The notes below the pieces were generated by a model. That model was not told where the DNA came from, made no database searches, and saw only the letters and a list, made by a program, of their open reading frames with translations. A stretch of DNA of 64,000 nt from assembly GCA_013152945.1 (NCBI GenBank), contig JAADFL010000205.1, forward strand, positions 23,301 through 87,300. Direction: 5' to 3'. Below are positions 45,002-63,597 of this stretch, one piece after another. Source of the DNA: Deltaproteobacteria bacterium. GTDB lineage: Bacteria; Myxococcota_A; JAADFL01. Position 1 is the stretch's first letter; each line of letters starts with the position of its first letter. A program made the translations under genes and the position numbers.

Positions 45002-46744
45002 TTGAAGGTACACCATCTAGACAAGCTCATCAAGAGATGCGCAAAGGAGTTGGCTTTTAGAAAAGCTCTGCAGGCCTTGAAGCTTTCATTGCCTTGGTCA
45101 TTGGTGTCCTTTGCCGTTTCCCTCTTGCTTTTGCCTCTTGGTCCTGCATGGCTCGCAGCAATATACTTATTGGTACCGATACTCATCCCCATTCTGTGGG
45201 CGGCCATGGCTTATCGAAAAGGATTGGACCTTGAATCAGCCGCATCAGCCCTTGACAAGGCGGCAGGTGAATCCGACCTGTTTTCCTCTGCCTTCGAGTT
45301 CCAGAAAGAGGCACGAGACACAGTAGATGTTTCAAAGGGCGCACCAGCGGCCCCGGAACAATTGGCCGCGTATGCGGTCCCCGACCGATTGGCCGCGTAT
45401 GCGGTCCCCGACCGAATGGCCGCGTCTGCGGCCTCTATAATGAAGCAATTGACCATTGCAAGGGCAGAAGAAAGAGCGGCCGAAGTTTGGAAAAGTCCGA
45501 TGCCCAGGCCGGAACCGAGGTCCATGTCATGTACTCCTGCAATAATCGGACTAACCCTGTTCCTGTCCGTATTCCTGGCAGGTGAGACAGGCAACCCATT
45601 ACTCGTTCATAACAACATGAAACCCGGGACATCCAGATATGTAACAGAAAGCACATCTCCTTTACCGGCAATGACCCCGCAAAGGAGAACCATGAAAAAG
45701 GCGCTTCATGTTCTGGCTGACTTGCTTACCAAAAAAGAAAAGGACCATACCTCCCTGCTCGAAAAGCCGAAAGAACAGCCTCCAAAGGATCAAAAACAGG
45801 GCGCGCCTGAAAAACATGGCCGTATGATCCAAAAACCCATCTCTGAAAGAATAATGGCAGCCAAGTCCGAACACTATTTCAGGGTCGCGGAAATAATGAA
45901 CGACCTGTCCACAAAAAAGACCTTCAAGGCCAAGGGAAAGTTCGACCATGGGGTCGATGACATGGTGAGATATCTCGATTCCAAGGTATTGAGGGGAAAG
46001 AACCTTTCCGGCAAGAAACTCGAAGACATGGCCGAAAAGGTGGATGACTTGTCACAACGCATGTCCGAGCTGGCTGCATCCAGGGAAGGCAGGCAGGCAA
46101 TGGACCCAATAGGCATGACCCATACCGGAGGCTTCAGCAACGAGATACAGGGACTGCTGCGTAGATCCCTTGCGGAATTCCTGCGCCACTATGCATCCAC
46201 ACTCCGGGCCAGGGCGGAACAAATCTCCAGGGAACAAAGCAGGTACAAGAAAGCCTTGGCAATGGCGCGCATGGGCAGACCAAAAAAAACAAGGCGAACG
46301 GGACTTCACAGCGATGCACCTGCAGATGGCCCCATGGCCATGGACAAAAATCCTTCACCGGATGTTTCTATTGCGCCCATGAAGCCTCCAGAGAACATCG
46401 AACCAAACAACATGAAGGGAAACGGCACTACACCCGGGGCCAAGGGCGCGGGAGCAGGCAAGGGGCCGAGAGCCAAACCACAGGAAATAGGCAAGGCGGG
46501 CGAGTACGATTACTTGAAGGTGAAGGCCAGGGTGGGACAGGGTAAATCATGTTTCGAGCTTCTAAAGGGAACCGCTCCGGGAGATGCCGAAGAAATAGAT
46601 TCAGAGGCGTTCAAAGGGCTTGTACAGACAAGTTCGTCCAAGGCTGAAAAGACCATGGAGCAAGAGCCCATACCAGAGGATCTCAAGGAGATAATAAAAG
46701 GTTACTTCAAGGCCCTGAGTCCTCAGGACAGGCCGGATGGATGA
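45002..46744 (+). CDS. Hypothetical membrane-anchored protein (N-terminal 2 transmembrane segments, Lys-rich cytoplasmic region)
   Basis: TTG start with an AAGGAG RBS. Two hydrophobic helices near the N-terminus. Contains an in-frame 27-bp tandem repeat. Stop overlaps the DUF58 start. Confidence 0.5.
   Translation: MKVHHLDKLIKRCAKELAFRKALQALKLSLPWSLVSFAVSLLLLPLGPAWLAAIYLLVPILIPILWAAMAYRKGLDLESAASALDKAAGESDLFSSAFEFQKEARDTVDVSKGAPAAPEQLAAYAVPDRLAAYAVPDRMAASAASIMKQLTIARAEERAAEVWKSPMPRPEPRSMSCTPAIIGLTLFLSVFLAGETGNPLLVHNNMKPGTSRYVTESTSPLPAMTPQRRTMKKALHVLADLLTKKEKDHTSLLEKPKEQPPKDQKQGAPEKHGRMIQKPISERIMAAKSEHYFRVAEIMNDLSTKKTFKAKGKFDHGVDDMVRYLDSKVLRGKNLSGKKLEDMAEKVDDLSQRMSELAASREGRQAMDPIGMTHTGGFSNEIQGLLRRSLAEFLRHYASTLRARAEQISREQSRYKKALAMARMGRPKKTRRTGLHSDAPADGPMAMDKNPSPDVSIAPMKPPENIEPNNMKGNGTTPGAKGAGAGKGPRAKPQEIGKAGEYDYLKVKARVGQGKSCFELLKGTAPGDAEEIDSEAFKGLVQTSSSKAEKTMEQEPIPEDLKEIIKGYFKALSPQDRPDG
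45362..45433 (+). repeat. 27-bp direct tandem repeat (2.6 copies) inside CDS
   Basis: ttggccgcgtatgcggtccccgaccga occurs twice in tandem, followed by the partial copy atggccgcgtctgcggcc. It encodes LAAYAVPDR twice, then MAASAAS. Confidence 0.85.
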
Positions 46745-47624
46745 CCTGAGTTCCTTTTTCACGCCTGAATTCCTGGCCCGGATATCACGTGTAAGCTTGT
46801 TTGCAGGTAAGCTCGTTGGAGGAGGAAGACCTTCTGACAGGACGTCCAAGAGAACAGGAACCGGGACAGAGTTCGCGGATCACCGCGAATATATACACGG
46901 TGACGATCCAAAGCAGATAGACTGGCGCCTGTATGGAAGAACAGGCAAGTTCTTCACCAAGCTGTACCACTCCGAGGAAGATCGCATAGTTACCATTGCC
47001 CTGGATTGCAGCAGTTCCATGTCCGCAGGCCGGGACAAGTTCGACCTTGCACGCAGGCTTGCCGGGGCACTGGTTTTCCTTGCAACAAAGGACAGGGACA
47101 CTGCTGTAATCGCTCCTTTTGACGAAAAGGTTCGTAATCCCTTGCATGGCCTGCGTGGAGAACCTGGCTTCAGGCGCTCCCTCGGGTGGCTCAGTGGGCT
47201 CGATGCAAAAGGGCATACCGACTTGCCGGGCGTGGCAGGGAATCTGCTCGGCCTTGTAAAATCCAGGGGACCGATAATATTGATCTCGGATCTCATGGAT
47301 TCTAGGACACAGTCCGCCGGATTCCTGTCGTCACTGACCGGGAAGCATGGAGAGGCGGTAATCATACACGTATTCGCCCCGACAGACCGGGAGCCGCAAA
47401 TAAGAGGGTATGTGAGAATAATGGATGTAGAAGATAATAACAGCATACCTGTTCTGCTGGACTCCAGGCTTGCAAAGCGATACACAGAGACGTTCGACAT
47501 GTTCCGCAAATCCATGAAAGCAAGGTGCCGGTCGCTCGGCATCAGGTATGTAAGCATATCGAGCGACAAGGATCTCGCAGAGGTATTTCTCAAGGAATTC
47601 AGGGAGGCAGGAATAACCTGTTGA
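46737..47624 (+). CDS. DUF58-family protein (MoxR-associated vWA-like)
   Basis: 'GTEFADHREYIHGDDPKQIDWRLYGRTGKFFTKLYHSEEDRIVTIALDCSSSM' matches the DUF58 signature (G.EF...R.Y..GDD.R.IDW ... D.S.SM). Confidence 0.75.
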   Translation: MDDLSSFFTPEFLARISRVSLFAGKLVGGGRPSDRTSKRTGTGTEFADHREYIHGDDPKQIDWRLYGRTGKFFTKLYHSEEDRIVTIALDCSSSMSAGRDKFDLARRLAGALVFLATKDRDTAVIAPFDEKVRNPLHGLRGEPGFRRSLGWLSGLDAKGHTDLPGVAGNLLGLVKSRGPIILISDLMDSRTQSAGFLSSLTGKHGEAVIIHVFAPTDREPQIRGYVRIMDVEDNNSIPVLLDSRLAKRYTETFDMFRKSMKARCRSLGIRYVSISSDKDLAEVFLKEFREAGITC

Positions 47625-47636
47625 TTGTTGTTTGGC

Positions 47637-49532
47637 ATGAAGTTCACCGGAATATCTGAAATTCAGGCTGCCGCACTTTTATCAGGCTCTCTCTTGCTCC
47701 TGGCCTTGCTCTTTTTATTAAGGGGCAGACGCCGGAAACTGGTGGTCGGCACCTTTCCTGTATGGACCATGTTGCTCGGACGTTCAAGAGTGGATTTCAG
47801 GGCCCTTTTCGCATTATTCTTTGAAATGCTTGCTGCAGCAATGCTCTGTCTTGCCCTTACAGGCCCCACGCTTCGCGGGACAACCGATCGCAGGCAGGCC
47901 CTGGCGATCCTGGTGGATCAGGGTGTTACTTCGAGCGTGATCACGCCAAGAGGGACCAGGCTCCTTGTCTGGTCCAGGTTTGCAGACAAGGTACTGAAAA
48001 AAATACCCGAAGACGTACCGGTCTTGGTCGCGGGCGCTGCCGATCACCTGGATATACTTGCCGGTCCATGGGCAAGCAAGGGTGAGGCAAGAGCGGCTCT
48101 GGCCAAGTTGGAGACAAAACCGGTTATGAGCATGCCCATGCAGGCCGTGGAGACGGCATGCCGTGCGCTCTCTGCGTGGACTTCATCGAGGGAGCCGGCC
48201 GTGCTCTATATAGGCGGTGAAGATGAATTACCCGAGGCCCAGCTCGAAAACGGTTGCAGGCTCTATCCGGTAGGGCTTCGCGCCAAGGTCGACAACCTGG
48301 CAATAACAGGTTTCATGGCGCGAAGGACATCCGGCTTCGGCCGGGGATATCGTCTTTTTGTCAAGGCAAGGAATTTTGCCAGTAGAACGCGCAAAACCAG
48401 GCTTTCGGTATACTCGCCTTCAACCGTATTCGGCTCCGAAGAAGTGAGCATCCCGGGACGCGGATCAATCGAGCGATCCTACAAACTGGATGAAGAAGGA
48501 GGGACCGAGGGCAGACTCGCGGCCGGATTGCAGGGGATTAATGGCAGACCGGCCGATGGCTTTGCATTGGACGACACGAGGTACGCAGTAGTGCCCAAGG
48601 GTAGACGTATCAAAGTCTTACTGGTTACGCAGGGCAATCTGTTTTTTTCAAAAGGCCTGGCTGTAAATCCTGCTGTTTCCCTTGAAACCATGGCCCCGGT
48701 GGAGTTGAAAAAGCTTTCCACAGGAACCAAACCCGACGTGGTTGTGCTGGATGATACAGCCATGCCTAAAAAATACTCCGGCAACATGCTCCTGTTCGGG
48801 CCGAATGCCGCAGGTTCGAGGTTCAAACTGGGAAAGGAAATCAAGAACCCTGTCGTGTATTCATGGAACATCGAGCATCCGCTGCTTCGCAATGTTCGCT
48901 TGTCCAGTCTTGAGATAGAAAAGGCTAAACCGATACAGGCCGAACCCGGTGACAAGGTCATCGCCAGTGATTCAAATAATAACAACTTGATGGTAGTAAG
49001 GGATGATGGAAAAGAAAAAATTCTTGCAATCGCCTTCAAACTCACTGACTCTGACCTGCCTTTAAAGATAGCCTTTCCTGTCATGCTGGCCAACTTCACG
49101 GATTGGTGCGTCAAGGCGGAAACAAGTTTGAACGGACGCGAGGTAGGGCTGGGGACCTTTCAAGTCGTGGACAATGGCACCGGTTCCGGGCCTGTCACGG
49201 TCAGGGGTCCCGGTGGTTTGAATGTCGATGTCGTGCAACGTGCAGGAGGGCCGTCCATATTCATTCGGGAACCTGGTTTCTACACAATAACTCAGGGGAA
49301 AAACAGTTATACCCTTGCAGCCAACTTCACAGACAAATCTGTGTCAGCAAGATTGGCAAGGCCGTTACGTAGATCCGACGGAACAGGCGAGCATATATTC
49401 AACATCATTTCCGAACGTTACGGCAGCAGGAAGGGAAAGCCGGACCGTCCTCTTACAAAAATATTGCTCCTGGCTGCCTTGAGTCTCGTTGGAATGCTAT
49501 GGATTGGACATGGTACAGGACTTTTTCATTGA
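47637..49532 (+). CDS. BatA_N (aerotolerance-regulator N-terminal) domain membrane protein
   Basis: N-terminal pattern ALLSGSLLLLALLFLLRGRRRKLVVGTFPVW is typical of BatA_N. The large extracytoplasmic region has no recognisable motif. Confidence 0.6.
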   Translation: MKFTGISEIQAAALLSGSLLLLALLFLLRGRRRKLVVGTFPVWTMLLGRSRVDFRALFALFFEMLAAAMLCLALTGPTLRGTTDRRQALAILVDQGVTSSVITPRGTRLLVWSRFADKVLKKIPEDVPVLVAGAADHLDILAGPWASKGEARAALAKLETKPVMSMPMQAVETACRALSAWTSSREPAVLYIGGEDELPEAQLENGCRLYPVGLRAKVDNLAITGFMARRTSGFGRGYRLFVKARNFASRTRKTRLSVYSPSTVFGSEEVSIPGRGSIERSYKLDEEGGTEGRLAAGLQGINGRPADGFALDDTRYAVVPKGRRIKVLLVTQGNLFFSKGLAVNPAVSLETMAPVELKKLSTGTKPDVVVLDDTAMPKKYSGNMLLFGPNAAGSRFKLGKEIKNPVVYSWNIEHPLLRNVRLSSLEIEKAKPIQAEPGDKVIASDSNNNNLMVVRDDGKEKILAIAFKLTDSDLPLKIAFPVMLANFTDWCVKAETSLNGREVGLGTFQVVDNGTGSGPVTVRGPGGLNVDVVQRAGGPSIFIREPGFYTITQGKNSYTLAANFTDKSVSARLARPLRRSDGTGEHIFNIISERYGSRKGKPDRPLTKILLLAALSLVGMLWIGHGTGLFH

Positions 49533-52113
49533 AATAGTTTCCAGGCTGTACCCTGGCCCGGGACAGGTGCTGTTTGCATCCAAGGCTATGCTGTGGCTCT
49601 CGGTCTTGGCTGTAATTCCCGCTGTCTTGGCATTGGTGAAACATGCCGAACTCGGCTGGGCCAGGGTCATTCCAATCGCCCTTTCAAGGGTGCTTTTCGT
49701 GGTGGCCGTTGTCTTGCTGCTGGCCGGGCCGAAAAGAGTAGAGAAAAAGGAATCCCTCGACATGGTCGTGGCAATCGATGCAAGTATGAGCATTTCCAAT
49801 TCCAGGCTCAAGGCTGAAAAAGAAGCGGCGTCAAAGTTGGTCGATGAGGCATTAAGCCAAGGCGCAGGCAAGGCTAATGTAATATTGTTTTCAGACACTG
49901 CCGCGATTTTGCCACTGCCGGCCGGACAAAAGGATATCAAGGCTTTGATAACTGGTGCAAAAAGGCCTCCCGGGAGAGGCACGGACATAGCCGGCGCCTT
50001 GAGGAGATCGTACCCGATGCTCGGCGCGAATGCAGCCAGGGTGGTTGTGCTCTTTTCTGATGGAAACCAGACGAGCGGCGACATAAAACAGGAAGCCCTG
50101 AGGGCGGCATCCCTTGGAATAAAACTTTACGCCTTCAACCCCAAGGCTCCAGTTGGAGGCATCCGGTTACTCTCAATCAGTGCGCCTAAAGAGGTTCGCG
50201 CATCCAAGGAAGTAAGGATAACGGCCAAGGTGCATTCGGATAGGGCTGTAATGTCGCATGTCTCGCTGTGGAAGGCCAAGGAGAAGATTGCCGAAAAGAA
50301 AGTACGTCTTAAAAAGGGTAAAAATGAAATTGATTTCAAAATCAATGCTCCCGGCGAGCCCGGACTTCTTGACTACAAGGTGGTTGCCAGGGCATGGCCT
50401 CCTGACGTGCAGAGGATGAACGATGTGCTGGCAACCAGGATACAGGTGGAACCAAGACCAAAGATCTTGATCCTAAGGCCCAAGAACCGGCCGGGATCGA
50501 ACATGACCGGTCTACTCAAGAGCCTTGATGCGGACATAGATGAAAAACCGATTGACGATTTTCCTCCCGATATGTACGGACTCGTCCAGTATGATCTCGT
50601 TGTGCTGGATGAGCCCTCGGCAAAAGACCTTGACGGCCCGGCCGTGAAAAGGCTTGGGAAATACCTCCAGGATATGGCTGGAGGCCTGTTGTTCATCGGC
50701 GGGAAAAGATCAAAGGATATTTCAGCCAAGCAGGAAGCGCCGATAGAGCACCTGTTGCCCCTCAGGTTGAAGCGAAGGAAAAAAAGGGAAAAACTGTCCC
50801 TTGCCATGGTTCTCGTAATCGATCGTTCAGGCAGCATGGCCAGAGACGACAAGTTTGTGGCGGCATTGCGGGCTGCCCATGCAGCCATAGACGAACTCAA
50901 GGACGAGGTCAGAGTGGCATTGGTGCTCTTTGCAGATGAGCCGGAAGTCGTGCTGCCGTTGACCTTGGCAAAGAAAAGGAAGGAGATTGACGCGGCCCTG
51001 GAAGGCCTTGAGGTGGGCGGAGGAACCTCGATATATCCGGCTCTTGAAAAGGCTTACGAAATTTTGAAAGGCGTGGATGCAAAGGTCAAGCATATATTGT
51101 TATTGACTGACGGCGAGTCGGTTTCCAGGTTCGAACAGCATACAGACCTGGTCGAGGAAATGACATCCAAGAAGATGACCATTTCGACCGTGGCCCTGGG
51201 CCCTGACGCAGAGCGCAGGCACTTGCGACGATTGGCGGCGGCCGGGGGAGGAAGGTACTACTACGCACCCACCCCTGACAAGGTGCCCAAGATCTTCACC
51301 AGGGAAACAAGAACCGTGTCTGAAACAGGTGCGGTGGAAAGAAAATCGGAAATTGCCGCAGCCAAGAGGAGCGACATACTGAAAGGCCTTGCCATCGAGA
51401 ACGCTCCTCCCTTTTCAGGACTGCTCTACGGAGAGATCAAGCCTGCTGCCGAATTGATCTTGGAGACAAAAAAACACGAGCCTTTATTGGCAAGGTGGAG
51501 GTACGGTCTCGGCCAGGTCGTGATGTTCACTTCCGATTGTTTCGGCCCGTGGACAAGTACATGGAACAACTTCAGCAAGGCCGCCGAGCTGTTCAGGCGC
51601 ATGGCAGGTGCAGGGATCCGGAGAAACAGGATTTCCTCTCTTTCAATCAATGCCAGACCTGTCAGAGACCACGTCGAGATCACCGTATCCGGCCGGGAAG
51701 GAGCATCCGGGTTGCCGGCTCCGGATGCACTCGATCTCGTGGTGGTGGACCCCCTGCTTAAAACTGAAAAACTCAAGATGAAAAGGTTAGGGACAGCCAC
51801 GTATTCTGCACGATATGTGCCCAAAAGACCAGGTCCCTACCTGTACAGGATTGAACACGTTGTGCACGGCAAGGTCATCGAATCGGCTACTGCAAGACTG
51901 GTCGAGGCATACCCGGAAGAATTCGCATCAGAGCATGATGCAGTCGACGTATTGAAAAAGGCATGCCAACTGACCGGTGGAAAACTAAATCCAAGTCCTA
52001 TGGAAATATTCCAAGACAAGGTAACCAACAAAAAAACTATTTCCCTTGGAAACTCTCTGATATATTTTGCATTGGGTTTATTGTTGTTTGAAACAGCTAT
52101 TAGAAGAGTATAG
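49510..52113 (+). CDS. Membrane protein with two von Willebrand factor A domains (BatA/BatB-like)
   Basis: N-terminal transmembrane helices, then 'LDMVVAIDASMSIS' and 'LAMVLVIDRSGSMARD ... GGGTSIYPALEKA ... LLLTDGES' vWA/MIDAS motifs. The start codon is uncertain (49489 or 49510). Confidence 0.7.
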   Translation: MVQDFFIEIVSRLYPGPGQVLFASKAMLWLSVLAVIPAVLALVKHAELGWARVIPIALSRVLFVVAVVLLLAGPKRVEKKESLDMVVAIDASMSISNSRLKAEKEAASKLVDEALSQGAGKANVILFSDTAAILPLPAGQKDIKALITGAKRPPGRGTDIAGALRRSYPMLGANAARVVVLFSDGNQTSGDIKQEALRAASLGIKLYAFNPKAPVGGIRLLSISAPKEVRASKEVRITAKVHSDRAVMSHVSLWKAKEKIAEKKVRLKKGKNEIDFKINAPGEPGLLDYKVVARAWPPDVQRMNDVLATRIQVEPRPKILILRPKNRPGSNMTGLLKSLDADIDEKPIDDFPPDMYGLVQYDLVVLDEPSAKDLDGPAVKRLGKYLQDMAGGLLFIGGKRSKDISAKQEAPIEHLLPLRLKRRKKREKLSLAMVLVIDRSGSMARDDKFVAALRAAHAAIDELKDEVRVALVLFADEPEVVLPLTLAKKRKEIDAALEGLEVGGGTSIYPALEKAYEILKGVDAKVKHILLLTDGESVSRFEQHTDLVEEMTSKKMTISTVALGPDAERRHLRRLAAAGGGRYYYAPTPDKVPKIFTRETRTVSETGAVERKSEIAAAKRSDILKGLAIENAPPFSGLLYGEIKPAAELILETKKHEPLLARWRYGLGQVVMFTSDCFGPWTSTWNNFSKAAELFRRMAGAGIRRNRISSLSINARPVRDHVEITVSGREGASGLPAPDALDLVVVDPLLKTEKLKMKRLGTATYSARYVPKRPGPYLYRIEHVVHGKVIESATARLVEAYPEEFASEHDAVDVLKKACQLTGGKLNPSPMEIFQDKVTNKKTISLGNSLIYFALGLLLFETAIRRV

Positions 52114-55877: not shown

Positions 55878-56597
55878 CTATTTTTTTGGAATCGCCCTTA
55901 TCCTGGCCTTCCCGTCCTGGACAACTACTTTCAGTTCCACGTCCCTGCACTTGTGTTTCTTCATGAACTCCGGCAGCTTGTGTTCGAATTGCTTCATGAC
56001 CTTGTCATACGAAAGCCCCTTGGAGGCCTGTCCAGTTTTCTGCCGGGCAAGCATGAGTTCATTGTAGGCCTTATGAAGCTTGGCCTTGTCCACCTGCGGC
56101 ACACGCGGAGTTGAAGGCATCGTGGAACGGGCGGTTTCCACTTCCTGCTCTGCAGATTGTGCTTTGGCCGGCACCGGTTTGCCCTCACCCCGGACTTGTG
56201 CTTCGTCTCGCCCTGGTCCCGGTTTCAATGCTCCGGGGGAATATGTGTTCAGCATGTCCTTGTTGACCTTGCTTTTTACGGATTTGTACCTGTCTCTGGA
56301 CATCCGCCCTTCTTCCATCTCCCTCAAGATCCTGTCCCAGTACCTGCTGTACGAAGCGAACTTTGAAATTATGGAGTTCAACTTGAATCTCAAGGCAGTG
56401 TTCCGTGGCGGGTTTTTGGCCCGGTGCTTTCTGACTGCAGCTTTGAGTTCATCGTATTTCTTTAACGGGGGAACTCGATCGAGTCCCAAAAAATATCTTT
56501 CAAAGGATATCTTCAACTGGTCGACTTGTATTCTGAGTTTTTCCAGCTCAATGGCGAAATCGGATTGAGTGACCATTTCCAACACTCCGTGCAGCAA
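55878..56597 (-). CDS. Hypothetical protein (basic, helical)
   Basis: ORF of 239 aa directly downstream of the PilZ genes on the same strand. No recognisable motif. Confidence 0.45.
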   Translation of the reverse strand: MLHGVLEMVTQSDFAIELEKLRIQVDQLKISFERYFLGLDRVPPLKKYDELKAAVRKHRAKNPPRNTALRFKLNSIISKFASYSRYWDRILREMEEGRMSRDRYKSVKSKVNKDMLNTYSPGALKPGPGRDEAQVRGEGKPVPAKAQSAEQEVETARSTMPSTPRVPQVDKAKLHKAYNELMLARQKTGQASKGLSYDKVMKQFEHKLPEFMKKHKCRDVELKVVVQDGKARIRAIPKK

Positions 56598-56784: not shown

Positions 56785-57153
56785 CTAACCGTTCAATATC
56801 CTGGTATCCTCTCCAAGGAAGGCCAGCAGCCTCTTTTTCCCATCGCCTTCGAATTCAAGGAACTTCAACCCAATACCTGTTCCAGGCAATCTGTGTATCA
56901 CCTGGGCAGCCACAGCTACCCGTTTTGAGTCATCGGGCAGCTTGATTTTTAACCGGAGTCGCGTTCCAAGAGGCAACTTAATATCTTCTTCGAGAAAGAG
57001 CCCGACCATGGAAAGATTGATGGTCTTGTATTTTCTGGTCATTTTTGGTGAAGAAAGGTCAACGTCCAGGGATAATTCTTTCCTGATATAGGTCCTTCGT
57101 TCCAAATCGGCCATCCAATCACCTCTCGGGCGCCAGGTATTCCCGCCGGACAA
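56785..57153 (-). CDS. PilZ-domain protein
   Basis: 'RRTYIRKELSLDVDLS ... INLSMVGLFLE' resembles the PilZ RxxxR ... DxSxxG c-di-GMP binding motifs. Confidence 0.6.
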   Translation of the reverse strand: MSGGNTWRPRGDWMADLERRTYIRKELSLDVDLSSPKMTRKYKTINLSMVGLFLEEDIKLPLGTRLRLKIKLPDDSKRVAVAAQVIHRLPGTGIGLKFLEFEGDGKKRLLAFLGEDTRILNG

Positions 57154-57301
57154 ACCTCTTGTTTAACATGATCCGACAAATGTATCCCTTTGGTCAAGAG
57201 TTGACAGCCCGTATCCTGTCAAAGATCTCCAAACCGGAAAAACTTTTTTTCGCCGGTATAATGTGGTCCTACAGGCATTAAAGGAGATGCTGTAACAACT
57301 A

Positions 57302-60300
57302 TCAGTCTCGTCCGAAAATCCGGGAAAAAAGCCCTCTGACCTTACCTGAGCCGGAAAGTTCTTCGGCATCCAACTCAACACTGGCTCCTCTGGTCTTCAA
57401 CTTGACGCCCAATCTTTCGATAACGTCATCAGGCGTGTACTTTGTGGACAGCCTAACCACGGCTCTCCTGCCGGTCCGTTCATCCTTTACGGTTACCGTC
57501 AGCAGGGCTTCCCTGTTGAGACCCACTGCTATTTCGAACTTTCTCGTTCCTCTGGGCCCCTTTGGGATGTTGGCGATAATCATGCTCCCGATAAACTCGT
57601 TTTCCTGGATTTTGTCACTTTCACCTTGGAAAAAATGTACTTCCAGAGTTTTTTGATTGTCCTTGGTCGTACCCAGTTTATACCTGGCAAGGTGAGGCAA
57701 CCTGGTTTGGGCAGGGATTATTGGCATGAACCGCCCTCCCGGAAGTCCCACGCCGATACTCTGGGGCAATACATCGACCAGCGCTACCTTTCTTTCCTCG
57801 TCTTGACTGTTGGCCAACAAAGCTGCGCCCACTGCCACGGCCTCGTCCGGATGCACGCCTTTGGACGGTGCCCTGCCGAAATGTTCCTCTATCATTCGGT
57901 GAATCAACGGCATGCGGGATTGGCCCCCTGTGAGCAGCACTGCATCCACATCCGCCACTGAAATGTCGGCGGATGCAAGTACCCTGTCGCTGACCTGCAA
58001 GGTCTTTTCAACAAGGTCTATAACTATCTCTTCGAATTCATTTCTACTAATCTCCACCGACAGATCTCTTGGCTTACGATCTATGACAGCAATATACGGC
58101 AACTCCACTTTTACCGATTCCTGACCGGACAATGTACGCTTTGCCTCTTCTGCCGCCTCGATTATCCTCTGGAGAACCATGGGATCATCAGGCAAATCAA
58201 CTCCCTCCGCTTCCTTGAACTTGTCCCAGATGAGAGTCACCAGCCGGTAGTCGAAATCCATTCCCCCCAGAAAAGTCTCTCCGCCCGTTGCCGCAACTTC
58301 GAACACATTTCCCTTGATACTTACAACCGAGGCATCGAATGTTCCTCCACCAAGGTCATACACCAGAACCCGTTTGTTCTTTTCTTTGTTGAACCCATAA
58401 GCCATTGCAGCAGCCGTGGGTTCGTTCACTATCCTCGTTATTTCCAAGCCGGCAAGCTCTCCGGCCTTTCTTACCGCGGATCGCTGATTCTCGTTATAGT
58501 ATGCAGGAACGGTAACCAGTGCCTTTTTCACATTGGCTTCCAGGTACATGGAGGCCAACTTTTTTACTTCTTTCAAGACAAGGGCGCTTATCTCCTGCAA
58601 TGTATACTCTTTGTCCCCCAGCTTGACCGCAGTATCATGGTGCGCTCCGGGCACGATTTTATAACTCATATGTCTTTTTACTTCCTCCACAAGTGGAGAG
58701 CCGTATTTCCTGCCGATGAGCCTCTTGAAACCATAAACCGTAAACTTGGGATTCGTTATCCTTTGCCTGGCCGCGGGTTCACCCACTGCAAACCTGCCGT
58801 CCTCCCATGCTACAATCGAAGGGATGGTATTCTTTCCTTGCGGTGTGGGTATTATTAATACCTTGCCGTCCTTGACCACGCTGGCGCAGCTATATGTTGT
58901 TCCAAGATCAACACCTATCGGAGACGCGTCGCTTTCGTACACAACCTCCCCGTTGCCTGTAGAAACAACATCTTCTGCGGCTTCATTCCCGGATTCAAGC
59001 GTTTTGGCCGGTTCTCTTGCTTCATCTTTTTCCCCGGTCTCATCCGTCTCTTTTGCCTTGGCTTTAATCTCTTGTTCAGCGCTATCCTTTGCCTGCGGTT
59101 TTTCTCGCAAGCCGGGTCCCTCATCATCTCCGAATAGCAAACTGTCATCTATCGCCAGGTCCAGGTCATCCTGGTCTACTTGACTGGAATCCCTTTCTTC
59201 TTCAATGTCCTCATTGCCGATCTCGAACTCTCCGGTGTTTCCTTCTGACGAGCCAAGTTCGTCCAGATCTTCGACCTCAAGATCGGCAGGAACAGCATGA
59301 ATCGGCTCGCTGTTTTCTTCATCCTGTCCCTCGAACTCTTGCAATTCCCTTTCATTGTCGAGAGCCGTTTGTGAAGACTCTTGTAATTCCACCGGCACCT
59401 CGAAAGAAACTTCTTCCTCCTCGCCCGTATCCTGGATGCCGGATTCAACAGGTGCTTTCTCCTCACCTTTTCCTTCCTGTTTTTCCCGGGTTGAAACAGG
59501 GACCTCGGGCCAATTCTCACCTGTTTCGGCCTTGACGGCAACTTCTTCACTATCAATATCTTCTGTTTCAATTGCCTTTACATCCTGTGGACCGGATGCG
59601 CCTGCTCCTTGCTCTTTTTCTTGTTCTTCATCGGCCGGGAAAGCATCTTCTTCTATCTCGATATCGATGTCTGTATCTCCTAATTCATCGATTTCTTTAT
59701 CCCCGGTCTCCTGTTGTTCCTCCCCGCTTTTCTTTTTTCCCTCTTCCGTTTCTTCTCTTTCTTTTGATACTTCTTTCTTAAGCTCCGGCTCGACTCGCTG
59801 TTCAGCCGAAGTCAATGTAGATGCCGCCTTTGTTTCATCCCGCGACATTGACTGCACACTATCCCCGTCCTCCAGGGGATCCAACACCTCGACAGCCACA
59901 TCATCCTCATCAAGATCCTTGTTTTTCTCCACAAGGTTCTTCAGCCAGTCTCGATCCATTGGATGAACATCCAAAAATTCTATTCCCATACCTGCCGGTT
60001 CACCCTCAAAAGACTGTTCTTTTGTCCTGATCCATCTAACAATCCCGCTTGCCATCAACAAGTGTACACCGCTCTTAAACTCCATGGTGATGCCTATTAT
60101 TGTGCCGACCGGTTGGGGCGTTGAAGTTCGAATAAAGATGCCTGATTCACTTATATTTGCAGAATACCTTTCCAAAAGCTGGTTTTCATCCTTGAACCTC
60201 AATGTGATTTTCTTGAAAAAAGGGGCTCGTTCCGCACTCCTGTTCTCGTTGTCAATATTGTCTTTTGTCATTATTTCCTCCATGAAGCCGGGATCAGCCG

Positions 60301-60304
60301 GCAA
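57302..60304 (-). CDS. PilZ-domain / acidic linker / Hsp70 (DnaK-family, lid-less) fusion protein
   Basis: The N-terminal ~110 aa is PilZ-like ([16 protein letters not shown] ... [11 protein letters not shown]), paralogous to the 60400..60798 product. About 300 aa of Glu/Asp-rich disorder follow. The C-terminus has Hsp70 hallmarks '[14 protein letters not shown]', '[14 protein letters not shown]' and '[11 protein letters not shown]', plus an SBD-beta, with no helical lid. Confidence 0.85.
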
Positions 60305-60399
60305 ACATGCAATATCGAGGGATCATTCCAAATCAAGCACCTCTGTAAAAAAACCGGGCATGACCTTGCCGGGCACAACGCAGTTGATGCCCGGCTCCT

Positions 60400-60798
60400 T
60401 CAAGCCAGGGGATCGGTGACCTCTACCTCGACGTCGTCTTCGGCATCACTGGCCTTGGCAAGGACAGAATCGAGCCACTCCTTGTCCTTGGGATGTATGT
60501 CCAGGAACTTCAGGCCCATGCCGGGTTGGAGGCCCTTGTATTCTTCGCCTGATTCGCGAATCCACTTGACAACCGACGTGGCCGAAAAGAGATGTTCTCC
60601 ATTCTTCAACATCGCTTTCAAGGTAACAATAGTGCCCGCAGGCCGTGGGCTCCTTGTTTTCACGAACATACCCGACTCACTCAAGTTACCCGAATATTTC
60701 TCAATAAACTGCTCCTCGTCTTTGACCCTGACGGTTACGCGGCTATAGAAGGGCACCCTTTCGGCAGCCCTTTTCTCATCTCCATTTCCTTCAGTCAT
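60400..60798 (-). CDS. PilZ-domain protein
   Basis: 'AAERVPFYSRVTVRVKDEEQFIEKYSGNLSESGMFVKT' is PilZ-like and closely paralogous to the N-terminus of the downstream Hsp70 fusion. Confidence 0.7.
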   Translation of the reverse strand: MTEGNGDEKRAAERVPFYSRVTVRVKDEEQFIEKYSGNLSESGMFVKTRSPRPAGTIVTLKAMLKNGEHLFSATSVVKWIRESGEEYKGLQPGMGLKFLDIHPKDKEWLDSVLAKASDAEDDVEVEVTDPLA

Positions 60799-61008
60799 TT
60801 CTTACTCCTTATCAAACATTAGCAAATACAAATCAAAATTATTCTACATTAAGCTGTAACCAATCGTCCAGCATCTGTTTATGGGCCGGAACTCTTTTCT
60901 TGGTCCCGGTAATAATTCTTGTAATAACCATCACCAAGAAAGATATTTTGCAATCATCCTTGTATTCAATGTTAATTATTTGTAAACTATGGTCTATAAA
61001 TAGAGGTC

Positions 61009-63597
61009 ATGATGTATAAGTGTAAAAGAAAAACTGTTTCTCTTTTTTATCTACTTGCAATAATGTTCCTGCCCTGTTTCGGTGCATCGTCCCAGGTTTT
61101 TCCCGGAGCATCGTGGCAAGAAAAAAGCCCTGAAGATGTGGGCCTGGACAATTCTGTTGTAAATACATTCGTATCCGCGCTTGGCGGTGACGGTGTAATC
61201 ATCAGAAACGGTTACCTGGTAAAGAAATGGGGGAATTGGACCGGCAGAGCGGACTGGGCATCGGCGATGAAGCCTGTAATGGCTACGATGCTCTTCTTTG
61301 CCATAGAAGAAAAACGAATCGATTCGATCGATTCACTCGTAAGACCCGTGGTTCAAAGCCACCTTGGAAAAGACCTGGCAACCAAAGACCTTACCATGTC
61401 ATGGCGCCACCTGGCGGACATGACCAGCGGGTACGCCAGGGGGGAAGCGCCCGGCCGGGCATGGGCATACAACGACTATGCGATTCAACTGTACAGCGTA
61501 TTGCTTTTTGACGGTGTGTATAAAGATACGCCCGACCATGTATCGACCACACACCTGTCTCAATTGGGATTCGAGGACGGCGGCCTCTTTGGTTCAAGGG
61601 GAGGAAGGGGCCTGAATGCATCACCAAGGGACTTCGCAAGAATCGGATGGTTCTGGCTCAACAAGGGTAACTGGAACGGGACCCAGCTTTTACCCAAGAG
61701 CTACTTCGACAAGTACATGAAACCGGACGTGCCCATTGATCTGCCAAGGACGAAAAACAGCGGTTCGGACTATCTCGGGGTAGGCAGCATAGGGGGAGGC
61801 TCGGATCAGACTGAATATGGTCCGGGTATTTATGGCTTCAATTGGTGGTTCAATGCAATAACGCCGAATGGTCACATGACATGGCCGGATGCACCGGCGG
61901 ATACGTTACAGGCCAATGGTCATTGGAACAAGGAAGTCATTACAATAATTCCAAGCCTCGGCTTGGTAATCGCCTGCCGGGGAAACTGGGGAGACTTCAG
62001 GCCGGGTGATTCAAGCGCCTCCATGAACCAGAGACTCGCATCCATTGCGAATGCCGTCACCAATATGCCGCCCAGCGCGGAATCCGCTGATTACTGGGTG
62101 GAACAACCGGACTCCCTGGAAATAACGTTGAAATACACCGATCCGGACGGGCCCGGACCATATTCATTTTCTATTCTATCCGGCCCCCGACATGGTGAAT
62201 TACAAGGCTCGGGAGCAAACAGAAAATATGTTCCTGCCACAGGTTTCCATGGAGATGATTCGTTCACCTGGAACGTATACGACGGCATATCATATTCAAC
62301 AGCGGCATCTGTCAACATCACAGTGGACCAGGAGGGCAACCAGGCGCCGAAAGCGGAAGACAGCGCAGTAAAGGGGTTCATCGACCAGCCGATTCCAATA
62401 GACCTTAAATATAGCGACCCTGATGGACCCGAACCGTACAATTTCACCATTGTCTCCGGGCCTTCACACGGAACGCTCGACGGCACCAAAGACAAGCGAA
62501 CTTACACACCAGGTTCCGGCTTCGTTGGTTTGGATTCTTTTACCTGGAAGGTCCTTGATGGAGAGGGGGGCGAATCCAACCAGGCGGAATGCGATATCTC
62601 GATAAGTCGCGAACTTGAAATAGCCAACACCACGGTAGCAACAGGCAGTGCGTACAAGTGGGACAAACTGGCCCCTGGAAAAAAACAATATATAGACAGA
62701 GCATATACCTTTACAACCGTTCCGGCTCAAATGACGGGCATGGCATATCTCATGACTGCAAATGATGATAAAAAAGCAAATAACGATCCCATGGTAATCT
62801 TTGATGTCAATCAAAAAGTCAGGGTGTTCGTTGCACATGACGACAGGGCCCGGCCCAGGCCTTCCTGGTTGGATACCTGGAGTGATACAGGGGAAGATTT
62901 AGGTAACGGCGACACCAATTTCAGCCTTCTTTCCAAAGAACTTGGTGCCGGCCGGATTTCACTCGGCCCAAACAGCTGTCCAAGCGATGGATGCAGTATG
63001 TATACTGTTGTAGTCCAAGCACTTGGTTCATCCGGTGATACCGATACAGATACCGACACCGACACGGATACTGATACCGACACCGACACGGACACGGATA
63101 CTGACACCGATACTGACACGGATACTGACACCGATACTGATACCGATACCGACACCGACACGGATACTGATACCGACACCGACATGGACACGGACGCTGA
63201 CACGGATACTGACACCGATACCGATACCGACACCGACATGGACACGGACGCTGACACGGATACCGACACCGACACCGATACCGATACCGACATGGACACG
63301 GATGTAGATACGGACACTGACACTAATACAGATACTGATACGCAAACAGGATCGAATTGCGGGCAAGACGGCCGGTTCTGTTACACCAGCAATGACTGCT
63401 GCGAGGATCTGTACTGTAAATTCCTGGATCCGATGGTGCCTGAAGATGGTGGAACGTGTAAGCCCAAGGATAGCGGGGAAATATCACCTGCCTCGGGATG
63501 CGGTTGCAGTCATTCGGCTTCAACAGGCTTCCCGTCTTTTTTGTTGATGTTATTCGGTATATCTATTTTCATAGGACACAAGCATTTCAATGGATGA
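61009..63597 (+). CDS. Mosaic surface protein: beta-lactamase-fold serine hydrolase domain + cadherin-like domains + TD-repeat linker + Cys-knot + Cys-motif C-terminal sorting signal
   Basis: Signal peptide. 'WASAMKPV' SxxK motif in a beta-lactamase/PBP-like N-domain. Two 'YTDPDGPGPYSFSILSGPRHG' cadherin-like modules. About 100 aa of DTDTDT. 'CGQDGRFCYTSNDCCEDLYC' module. The C-terminus is 'GCGCS' + transmembrane helix + 'GHKHFNG'. Confidence 0.75.
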   Translation: MMYKCKRKTVSLFYLLAIMFLPCFGASSQVFPGASWQEKSPEDVGLDNSVVNTFVSALGGDGVIIRNGYLVKKWGNWTGRADWASAMKPVMATMLFFAIEEKRIDSIDSLVRPVVQSHLGKDLATKDLTMSWRHLADMTSGYARGEAPGRAWAYNDYAIQLYSVLLFDGVYKDTPDHVSTTHLSQLGFEDGGLFGSRGGRGLNASPRDFARIGWFWLNKGNWNGTQLLPKSYFDKYMKPDVPIDLPRTKNSGSDYLGVGSIGGGSDQTEYGPGIYGFNWWFNAITPNGHMTWPDAPADTLQANGHWNKEVITIIPSLGLVIACRGNWGDFRPGDSSASMNQRLASIANAVTNMPPSAESADYWVEQPDSLEITLKYTDPDGPGPYSFSILSGPRHGELQGSGANRKYVPATGFHGDDSFTWNVYDGISYSTAASVNITVDQEGNQAPKAEDSAVKGFIDQPIPIDLKYSDPDGPEPYNFTIVSGPSHGTLDGTKDKRTYTPGSGFVGLDSFTWKVLDGEGGESNQAECDISISRELEIANTTVATGSAYKWDKLAPGKKQYIDRAYTFTTVPAQMTGMAYLMTANDDKKANNDPMVIFDVNQKVRVFVAHDDRARPRPSWLDTWSDTGEDLGNGDTNFSLLSKELGAGRISLGPNSCPSDGCSMYTVVVQALGSSGDTDTDTDTDTDTDTDTDTDTDTDTDTDTDTDTDTDTDTDTDTDTDTDTDMDTDADTDTDTDTDTDTDMDTDADTDTDTDTDTDTDMDTDVDTDTDTNTDTDTQTGSNCGQDGRFCYTSNDCCEDLYCKFLDPMVPEDGGTCKPKDSGEISPASGCGCSHSASTGFPSFLLMLFGISIFIGHKHFNG
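63037..63345 (+). repeat. (GAYACN)n hexanucleotide tract encoding (Thr-Asp)n
   Basis: gataccgatacagataccgacaccgacacggatact and similar units, period 6, in frame. Confidence 0.85.

Follow-up and report, generated by a model that had tools for sequence, protein, structure and literature searches.

Analysis of a 64,000-nucleotide stretch of a Deltaproteobacteria bacterium genome (contig JAADFL010000205.1; hereafter the window) revealed three consecutive minus-strand genes that, by analogy with the CsdK and CdbS proteins of Myxococcus xanthus, would form a dedicated chaperone-partner module around a naturally lid-less Hsp70 of the PilZ-DnaK family, a reading to which we assign a probability of about 0.6. 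The first gene encodes a stand-alone PilZ protein (PilZ-a), the second a PilZ domain joined through an acidic linker to an Hsp70 (the fusion), and the third another stand-alone PilZ protein (PilZ-c). A gene for a basic 232-aa protein follows, and all four open reading frames (ORFs) were recovered at the coordinates listed in Table 1. Outside the trio, the window contains no further PilZ or Hsp70 match.

The anatomy described in an earlier note on this DNA, namely three PilZ domains with intact motifs for cyclic di-GMP (c-di-GMP), an acidic linker, and a complete nucleotide-binding domain (NBD) and beta part of the substrate-binding domain (SBD-beta) with no alpha-helical lid (SBD-alpha), was borne out by Pfam and by alignment to E. 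coli DnaK. The note could not place this combination in a characterised system, a statement that has to be corrected, since M. xanthus PilZ proteins with DnaK domains were catalogued by Kuzmich et al. in 2021 (PMC8316039) and PilZ-DnaK fusions were characterised by Seidel et al. in 2023 (PMC10313047). In the latter work, CsdK1 (MXAN_3778) and CsdK2 (MXAN_6605) are PilZ-NBD-linker-SBD proteins, and the stand-alone PilZ protein CdbS (MXAN_4328), which binds c-di-GMP, pulls down both of them together with a DnaJ, a GrpE, and an Hsp20. In a two-hybrid assay, CdbS was found to bind the DnaK part of CsdK2, and both CsdKs are required for CdbS to increase post-transcriptionally, an increase by which the chromosome is disrupted and death at 37 °C is hastened. 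The CsdKs stabilise CdbS by way of their DnaK part (PMC10313047).

Conservation and origin of the trio

The closest relative, P0002, lies on a 205-kb contig that was independently assembled as ENA ERZ27252234 and JGI Ga0272442 (loci L001 and L006). There, the same order and orientation are found, with a PilZ protein of 132 aa, a PilZ-acidic linker-Hsp70 protein of 1090 aa, and a PilZ protein of 106 aa, and one-to-one comparison with the window gave identities of 66% (PilZ-a), 54% (fused PilZ), 73% (Hsp70 part), and 51% (PilZ-c). Apart from the trio, no gene is common to the window and L001 within 8 kb on either side. The adjacency of the PilZ genes could still be a product of local tandem duplication in a PilZ-rich lineage, with the fusion working alone as its solitary relatives would. 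Such an explanation is favored by the finding that a stand-alone PilZ gene lies beside the fusion in 0/9 other family loci (L002, L003, L004, L009, L010, L011, L070, L090 of Anaeromyxobacter dehalogenans, and L091; for L009–L011 and L070 judged by BLAST at E ≤ 1e-4 only), and by the long intergenic gaps in the window, which measure 128 and 187 nt inside the trio. We consider it quite unlikely, given that the genes have retained their order and orientation in both genomes at 51–73% protein identity with otherwise unshared flanks, that all motifs are under apparent purifying selection, that PilZ-c (28% identical to PilZ-a) is no recent duplicate, and that M. xanthus offers a precedent for a stand-alone PilZ protein partnering a PilZ-DnaK protein.

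The three PilZ domains were each recognized by the Pfam PilZ model (PF07238, cut-off 22.5 bits), with 49.5 bits for PilZ-a (E 6e-13), 41.5 bits for the fusion N-terminus (E 2e-10), and 47.6 bits for PilZ-c (E 2e-12). Scored against TIGR02266, the "Myxococcus paralogous" type, PilZ-a reached 79.5 bits and exceeded the 68.7 cut-off, while the fused PilZ (61.9) and PilZ-c (34.6) fell below it. The RxxxR and NxSxxG pair is complete in all three domains (Table 1), at positions 10–14 and 38–43 of PilZ-a and 7–11 and 33–38 of PilZ-c, and both halves are kept in 6/6 PilZ domains of the window and L001. On this basis, the three domains of the window are predicted to be c-di-GMP-competent, and the general idea of a c-di-GMP-linked chaperone, put forward in the earlier note, appears reasonable. 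In the AlphaFold2 model of the fusion, built from a 58-sequence alignment, residues 21–120 of the fused PilZ have block-mean predicted local distance difference test (pLDDT) values of 83–96, with strands over residues 18–102 and a helix over residues 104–121.

The upstream PilZ had been proposed in the earlier note to be a close paralogue of the fusion N-terminus, and this view was strengthened by our comparisons. PilZ-a and the fused PilZ are 46% identical (tblastn E 9e-38), and within its own lineage PilZ-a is 46–53% identical to the fused domain, as opposed to at most 39% for any other PilZ recovered. An 11-residue post-domain motif, DD[VI]EVEV[STL]DPL, closes PilZ-a and opens the linker of the fusion in both genomes; it sits in a predicted disordered region and is missing from every other family member inspected in the alignment. 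Scanning metagenomes with this motif pattern returned the L001/L006 contig as the only close relative, and a scan with the PilZ-a/fused-PilZ alignment returned 80 loci, of which one (L006, the same contig as L001) was a close relative and the rest generic TIGR02266 PilZ proteins at no more than 39% identity. Because the shared region extends 11 residues past the domain into a motif kept in both genomes, these data indicate that PilZ-a is a paralogue of the fusion N-terminus that arose by partial tandem duplication of the 5′ end of the fusion gene, before the two genomes split. The alignment of PilZ-a continues through the helix equivalent to residues 104–121 of the fused PilZ, and since this C-terminal helix region is included, PilZ-a is probably a canonical PilZ rather than an xPilZ, which has no C-terminal helix.

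Such a duplication also suits a different role for PilZ-a, that of a free sensor copy in competition with the tethered PilZ, either for c-di-GMP or for a docking site used by both, which would buffer the chaperone response, as a regulator and not a client; the earlier note had suggested a titration pair of this kind. The similarity of PilZ-a to the fused domain and the duplicated motif, kept in both copies and both genomes, are in line with it. A terminator-like hairpin with a folding energy of −27.5 kcal/mol (z-score only −1.6) directly follows the PilZ-a stop codon and may attenuate read-through into the fusion gene, which would make PilZ-a more abundant than the fusion. The hairpin is, however, not conserved, as the corresponding gap in L001 comprises only 30 nt, and the decoy role leaves PilZ-c unexplained, which is basic, more distant, and equally conserved in position. 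We regard this role as possible but clearly less probable than a chaperone-partner module, with which it is compatible and which it does not exclude.

The polyacidic linker that separates the fused PilZ from the Hsp70 sets the two trio-bearing genomes apart. Its relatives carry Pro/Ala-rich, roughly neutral linkers of 40–115 aa, and giant polyacidic linkers were found only in the window (net charge −80) and in L001 (427 aa, net charge −129), with P0053 mildly acidic. AlphaFold2 assigned pLDDT values below 50 over residues 123–439, with the exception of a small island at residues 374–378, and the linker is predicted to be disordered. Compositionally biased sequence of this kind can be error-prone in assemblies of metagenome-assembled genomes (MAGs), and an assembly or frame artefact that joined a PilZ gene to an Hsp70 gene was considered. 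It was rejected as vanishingly improbable: the ORF runs uninterrupted through 989 codons behind a good ribosome-binding site, no tandem repeats were found in the linker DNA, the independently assembled L001 is built alike, with an acidic linker that is longer still, and about 150 family members share the fusion. As to the weak points that the earlier note had named for its own proposal, both c-di-GMP motifs are retained in 3/3 PilZ domains, and a frame artefact is effectively excluded by the continuous ORF and by L001.

A short island within the linker (59135..59167, fusion residues 369–379) has a conserved counterpart in L001 (DLDLMIDASLL) and a looser one in P0053 (DLDISVDDL). Nowhere else in the linker is pLDDT raised (here ~51) and a helix predicted, and the island may represent a short docking motif.

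The lid-less Hsp70 and its C-terminal tail

The Pfam HSP70 model matched residues 463–965 of the fusion over model positions 2–510 of 599 (E 2e-155). For residue-level comparison, 55 family members were aligned to an E. coli DnaK sequence that was correct at 18/18 well-known positions. The ATPase residues D8, K70, E171, D194, T199, and D201 (E. coli numbering), the J-domain contact residues R167, N170, and T173, and D393 of the interdomain linker are each invariant in 55/55 members. The Hsp70 of the fusion is probably an active, J-protein-responsive ATPase. Its scores stay below the cut-offs of the equivalog models, with 537.7 versus 648 for NF001413, 514.9 versus 822.55 for TIGR02350, and 406 versus 708.55 for HscA. 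The substrate cleft of the family is hydrophobic, with I/V at position 401, L/I at 426, F/L at 436, and L/V at 438, and carries the signature E402G, T403L, M404P (invariant, 55/55), V407R, A429T/S, T437E, and D481E. In the window, the changes at the SBD-beta arch are E402G, T403L, M404P, V407R, A429T, and T437E.

A lid was not found, as the alignment to E. coli DnaK ends at about residue 515 of DnaK and only 35–45 residues remain. All family members end 40–80 residues past DnaK position ~495–510, and because every member ends at a comparable point, the absence of the lid characterises the whole family and does not stem from truncation. AlphaFold2 modeled the Hsp70 part (residues 445–955) with pLDDT above 90 and left a 7-residue remnant of lid helix A, behind which a tail of 36 residues follows. 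The model superposes best on ATP-bound, domain-docked DnaK (7krt and 4b9q; root-mean-square deviation ~3.9 Å over ~515 columns), and the highest target-normalised template modeling (TM) scores against it, about 0.9, were obtained with lid-truncated BiP structures (7a4u and 7a4v). An Hsp70 with an open cleft can accept folded clients, and such a cleft would thus suit native PilZ domains as clients. As the title of Buczynski 2001 states (cited in PMC4595643), lid-less DnaK shows faster peptide on- and off-rates.

Bit scores against the fusion were 500–600 for about 55 metagenomic or MAG proteins, compared with about 430 for canonical DnaKs. All of these relatives bear an N-terminal extension of 100–330 residues with a recognisable PilZ domain in most of them; in a subgroup (P0003–P0009 and related proteins, e.g. 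those of L002 and L003) the N-terminal PilZ is degenerate and lacks both RxxxR and NxSxxG. A search seeded with an Anaeromyxobacteraceae member added 120 further proteins, including those of the cultured A. dehalogenans, A. oryzae, and A. soli; it showed the family to be abundant in Anaeromyxobacter and brought up no M. xanthus entry. The window fusion has the derived residues G402, P404, R407, E437, and H366 in common with the family, and in a neighbor-joining tree of the Hsp70 core (no bootstrap) the window and L001 form a deep sister branch inside the family, apart from canonical DnaK. By sequence, the fusion is a member of a large PilZ-lidless-Hsp70 (CsdK-like) family that includes Anaeromyxobacter. 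Scanning GTDB genomes with the fusion returned an archaeal DnaK as the only match.

In place of the lid, the family carries a C-terminal tail in which a variable Gly/Pro/Ala spacer is followed, within the last 25 residues, by the motif G-[FL]-[LF]-x-[RK]-R-[LI]-F-G-[GKR]. The motif was detected in 51/56 and 87/95 family members versus 1/64 canonical Hsp70s, examples being GGFLGWLKRLFGG, KKGLFKRIFGRK, and, from A. dehalogenans, GLGGLLRRLLGR. It resembles the membrane-targeting sequence of E. coli MinD, KGFLKRLFGG (PMC5471200), to which the consensus is near-identical in most family members, and like that sequence it stands at the extreme C-terminus after a flexible spacer. It is joined to an Hsp70 and not to a ParA/MinD ATPase. 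The tail could serve as an amphipathic membrane anchor, or as a pseudo-substrate, hydrophobic and basic, that would fill the lid-less cleft in cis.

Were the tail an anchor, the trio might be read as a membrane-anchored envelope chaperone, in which the MinD-like helix would hold the Hsp70 at the inner membrane, sensing of c-di-GMP by the PilZ domains would lead to recruitment or release of clients associated with the membrane, for instance components of secretion, polysaccharide, or pilus systems, and the stand-alone PilZ proteins would act as adaptors. Many PilZ proteins act at membrane machines, and AlphaFold2 predicted a short terminal helix at residues 979–986 (pLDDT ~50) that is not packed on the protein, which together with the family-wide resemblance to MinD agrees with this reading. 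Conversely, the tail of the window is less MinD-like than that of most family members, a crude hydrophobic-moment measure did not discriminate, as neither the tail nor the MinD motif itself exceeded shuffled sequence, and its Arg-flanked hydrophobic core also fits a DnaK-type substrate that could bind the cleft in cis. Furthermore, CdbS, the known M. xanthus client, acts on the chromosome and not on the envelope. We hold an envelope role to be tentative, and place it well behind a CsdK/CdbS-like partnership.

Proposed mechanism

In the mechanism that we propose, PilZ-a and/or PilZ-c would be dedicated native-state clients, or regulatory partners or adaptors, of the fused Hsp70, whose ATP- and J-protein-driven cycles would determine how stable or available they are. 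The adjacency of the genes, conserved in two genomes, lends indirect support to such a client relation. The lid-less cleft would bind and release rapidly and could take folded domains. The tethered PilZ would respond to c-di-GMP in cis, and PilZ-a may be its competitor for a single site, such that c-di-GMP would decide which of the PilZ proteins is retained and which is let go. The tail would position the machine at the membrane or serve as a pseudo-substrate in cis, and the acidic tether may do no more than lengthen the reach and raise the solubility of the protein, or it may draw in the basic PilZ-c.

Several observations weigh against this proposal. Gating by c-di-GMP is its weakest step, because mutation of the c-di-GMP motif in M. 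xanthus, either as CdbS R9A or as CsdK2 R38A, left the CdbS-CsdK2 two-hybrid interaction unchanged, and c-di-GMP binding was not important for CdbS toxicity (PMC10313047). The trio has been seen in two genomes only, and its co-transcription is not assured given the long intergenic gaps and the terminator-like hairpin. No gene for a J-protein, GrpE, a diguanylate cyclase, or a phosphodiesterase was found in the 64-kb window. Finally, AlphaFold2 leaves the tail undocked from the cleft, at pLDDT ~50.

The partnership could take a more drastic form if one stand-alone PilZ protein inhibited growth on accumulation, like CdbS, and the PilZ-Hsp70 controlled that accumulation, the trio then being a toxin-plus-chaperone cassette. 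When CdbS increases four-fold in M. xanthus, which CsdK1 and CsdK2 make possible, chromosome organisation is disrupted and the cells die; the four genes of that system are not neighbors, which is part of the argument of its authors against a toxin-antitoxin or defence-like nature (PMC10313047). In the window, the genes are linked and travel as a unit between unrelated contexts, and the basic PilZ-c might suit nucleic-acid binding. At the same time, none of the four proteins matched a PADLOC defence-protein model at E ≤ 0.01, mobile-element genes were not identified in the flanks, and no cdbA-like gene was recognised nearby in a scan of ORFs of at least 100 aa, which a smaller one would escape. 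A cassette of this kind appears unlikely. The same low weight is given to the most far-reaching version, a self-contained, linked CdbS/CsdK circuit in which a membrane-tethered lid-less Hsp70 with a tethered PilZ and a 323-residue polyacidic arm would control the accumulation of two PilZ clients by c-di-GMP, with a harmful basic PilZ-c, as a mobile chaperone-gated growth-arrest or cell-death cassette; we mention it as a speculative extension of the chaperone-partner reading.

Gene starts, neighboring genes, and other features of the window

The fusion gene most likely starts at the ATG at 60271, downstream of a GGAGG sequence, and its 989-aa product is identical to NCBI NOZ88059.1 ("Hsp70 family protein [Deltaproteobacteria bacterium]"); a TTG at 60304, chosen by the ORF finder, would give 1000 aa. 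The most likely start of PilZ-c is the ATG at 57114, which is preceded by a GAGGTG ribosome-binding site and coincides with the start of its L001 orthologue, the alternative being a TTG at 57153 and 122 aa. For the basic protein, the ATG at 56576 is the most likely start and yields a 232-aa product identical to P0128. The PilZ-a protein is identical to NCBI NOZ88060.1, and the ribosome-binding sites of PilZ-a and the fusion are good. A candidate promoter lies upstream of PilZ-a and agrees with the sigma-70 hexamers at 9/12 positions, but comparable sites are no more numerous in this region than shuffled sequence would give.

Table 1. Coordinates of the features of the trio and its surroundings within the window
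Feature	Position	Strand	Description
Candidate sigma-70-like promoter	60841..60870	(-)	TGGACG, 18-nt spacer, TAGAAT; upstream of PilZ-a
PilZ-a	60400..60798	(-)	stand-alone TIGR02266-type PilZ, 132 aa, isoelectric point (pI) 5.1; RAAER, NLSESG; C-terminal end DDVEVEVTDPLA
Terminator-like hairpin	60347..60395	(-)	GCCGGGCA...UGCCCGG then U7; GC-rich; directly after PilZ-a stop codon
PilZ-linker-Hsp70 fusion gene	57302..60271	(-)	989 aa
Fused PilZ domain	59909..60241	(-)	residues 11–121; RSAER, NISESG; modeled beta-barrel then C-terminal helix
Short conserved motif	59873..59905	(-)	residues 123–133, start of linker; common to PilZ-a C-terminus and both L001 orthologues
Polyacidic linker, predicted disordered	58940..59908	(-)	residues 122–444; 323 aa, 33% Asp+Glu, net charge −80
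Hsp70 NBD	57788..58939	(-)	residues 445–828; all checked catalytic and J-domain-site residues conserved
Interdomain linker VALVD	57773..57787	(-)	equivalent of VLLLD, residues 389–393 of E. coli DnaK
SBD-beta	57434..57772	(-)	residues 834–946; pocket hydrophobic, arch with family-specific changes; pLDDT >90
C-terminal tail	57305..57433	(-)	residues 947–989; in place of lid: 7-residue helix remnant, flexible spacer, terminal motif
Terminal motif of tail	57305..57349	(-)	residues 975–989; includes GLFSRIFGR
PilZ-c	56785..57114	(-)	stand-alone basic PilZ, 109 aa, pI 9.8; RTYIR, NLSMVG
Basic protein gene	55878..56576	(-)	232 aa, pI 10.1; MXAN_5187 C-terminal domain (NCBIfam)

The basic protein, 208 nt downstream of PilZ-c, had been listed with the trio in the earlier note (there as a conserved-looking protein of 239 aa). 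Its membership in the module was rejected, as the protein has no homologue in any other PilZ-Hsp70 locus and its orthologue in the sister metagenome sits on a separate 134-kb contig amid unrelated genes. Only six database homologues were found. In the window, its gene is convergent with a LysM-amidase_3 gene, and the homologue at L088 follows PBP and SpoIID genes, which hints at a cell-wall-related role separate from the PilZ module.

Among the family loci without a stand-alone PilZ neighbor, L002, L003, and L090 (A. dehalogenans 2CP-1, CP001359.1) carry a solitary PilZ-Hsp70 gene that is divergent beside guaB (IMP dehydrogenase), with guaA (GMP synthase) close by in L002 and L090. Downstream, the three loci have VTT-domain, cNMP-binding, hexapeptide-repeat, and VWA_CoxE genes in common. 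The placement of a c-di-GMP receptor next to genes of guanine-nucleotide synthesis may be meaningful. At L001, the trio is followed about 4.5 kb downstream by a bpMoxR AAA gene.

Elsewhere in the window, a plus-strand gene at 61009..63597 encodes an 862-aa secreted protein with a beta-lactamase-like N-terminus and two Big_9 Ig domains, followed by about 100 residues of nearly pure Thr-Asp repeats (TDTDTD...), a Cys-rich C-terminus, and a hydrophobic tail. A further plus-strand gene at 5484..11075 encodes an RHS/YD-repeat protein of 1863 aa that has teneurin-like NHL and YD-shell domains; the G+C content of this segment (0.60–0.63) is well above the window average of about 0.51, and the segment may therefore represent a polymorphic-toxin locus gained by horizontal transfer. 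SelA (L-seryl-tRNA(Sec) selenium transferase; Pfam E 5e-131) is encoded on the minus strand at 14333..15766, so that the organism probably makes selenoproteins. A same-strand run of plus-strand genes at 45002..52113, including those for a DUF58 protein and an 874-aa double-VWA protein, resembles the BatA/BatB-MoxR-type "aerotolerance" operons.

Comparison with known systems

By its published description, the CsdK architecture is also that of the fusion, with an N-terminal PilZ followed by an NBD, a conserved linker, and an SBD, and the full bipartite c-di-GMP motif of CsdK2 is present in the fusion as well. PilZ-a and PilZ-c resemble CdbS in being small, single-PilZ proteins with the motif at the extreme N-terminus, and the same family is found in other Myxococcota, e.g. 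Anaeromyxobacter. The differences lie foremost in gene arrangement: in the window the stand-alone PilZ genes flank the fusion, one on each side, whereas the M. xanthus genes are explicitly unlinked. Moreover, one of the stand-alone PilZ proteins here is a paralogue of the fused domain of recent origin, a cdbA-like gene was not recognised near the trio, and the clade of the window and L001 branches deep in the family. Relative to other members of the family, the fusion also stands out by the length and charge of its linker.

The M. xanthus work left open how general the partnership of a PilZ-DnaK with a stand-alone PilZ is, what role c-di-GMP binding by the chaperone PilZ plays, and whether the system is a cell-death module. 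The finding that the partners are encoded together in a deep-branching relative and in a second genome supports an ancient, specific partnership, and the trio offers a compact three-gene system for reconstitution. What is new here is the linkage of the trio, the duplication of the sensor, the polyacidic tether, and the deep branching within the family, together with the family-wide absence of the lid and the MinD-like tail; judging by searches of the text of PMC10313047, neither the natural lid absence nor the tail appears to be discussed there, and both yield testable predictions on where and how PilZ-Hsp70 chaperones act. Since the architecture and the partnership had already been published, the gain is incremental and not categorical.

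Compared with E. coli DnaK, the fusion is 38–42% identical over residues 5–515 and keeps the ATPase, J-domain-binding, and interdomain-linker residues, and the predicted fold of its Hsp70 part matches DnaK in the ATP state. It departs from canonical DnaK in having no alpha-helical lid and no C-terminal disordered region, in the replacement of the arch residues Met404 by Pro and Ala429 by Thr, and in the additional N-terminal PilZ, linker, and MinD-like tail. In its NBD and SBD-beta content, it equals DnaK lid deletions, lid-truncated BiP, and a Mycoplasma DnaK without SBD-alpha (5obu). The engineered lid-less Hsp70s are, however, laboratory truncations, whereas in the PilZ-Hsp70 proteins the absence of the lid is natural, family-wide, and accompanied by a new C-terminal motif.

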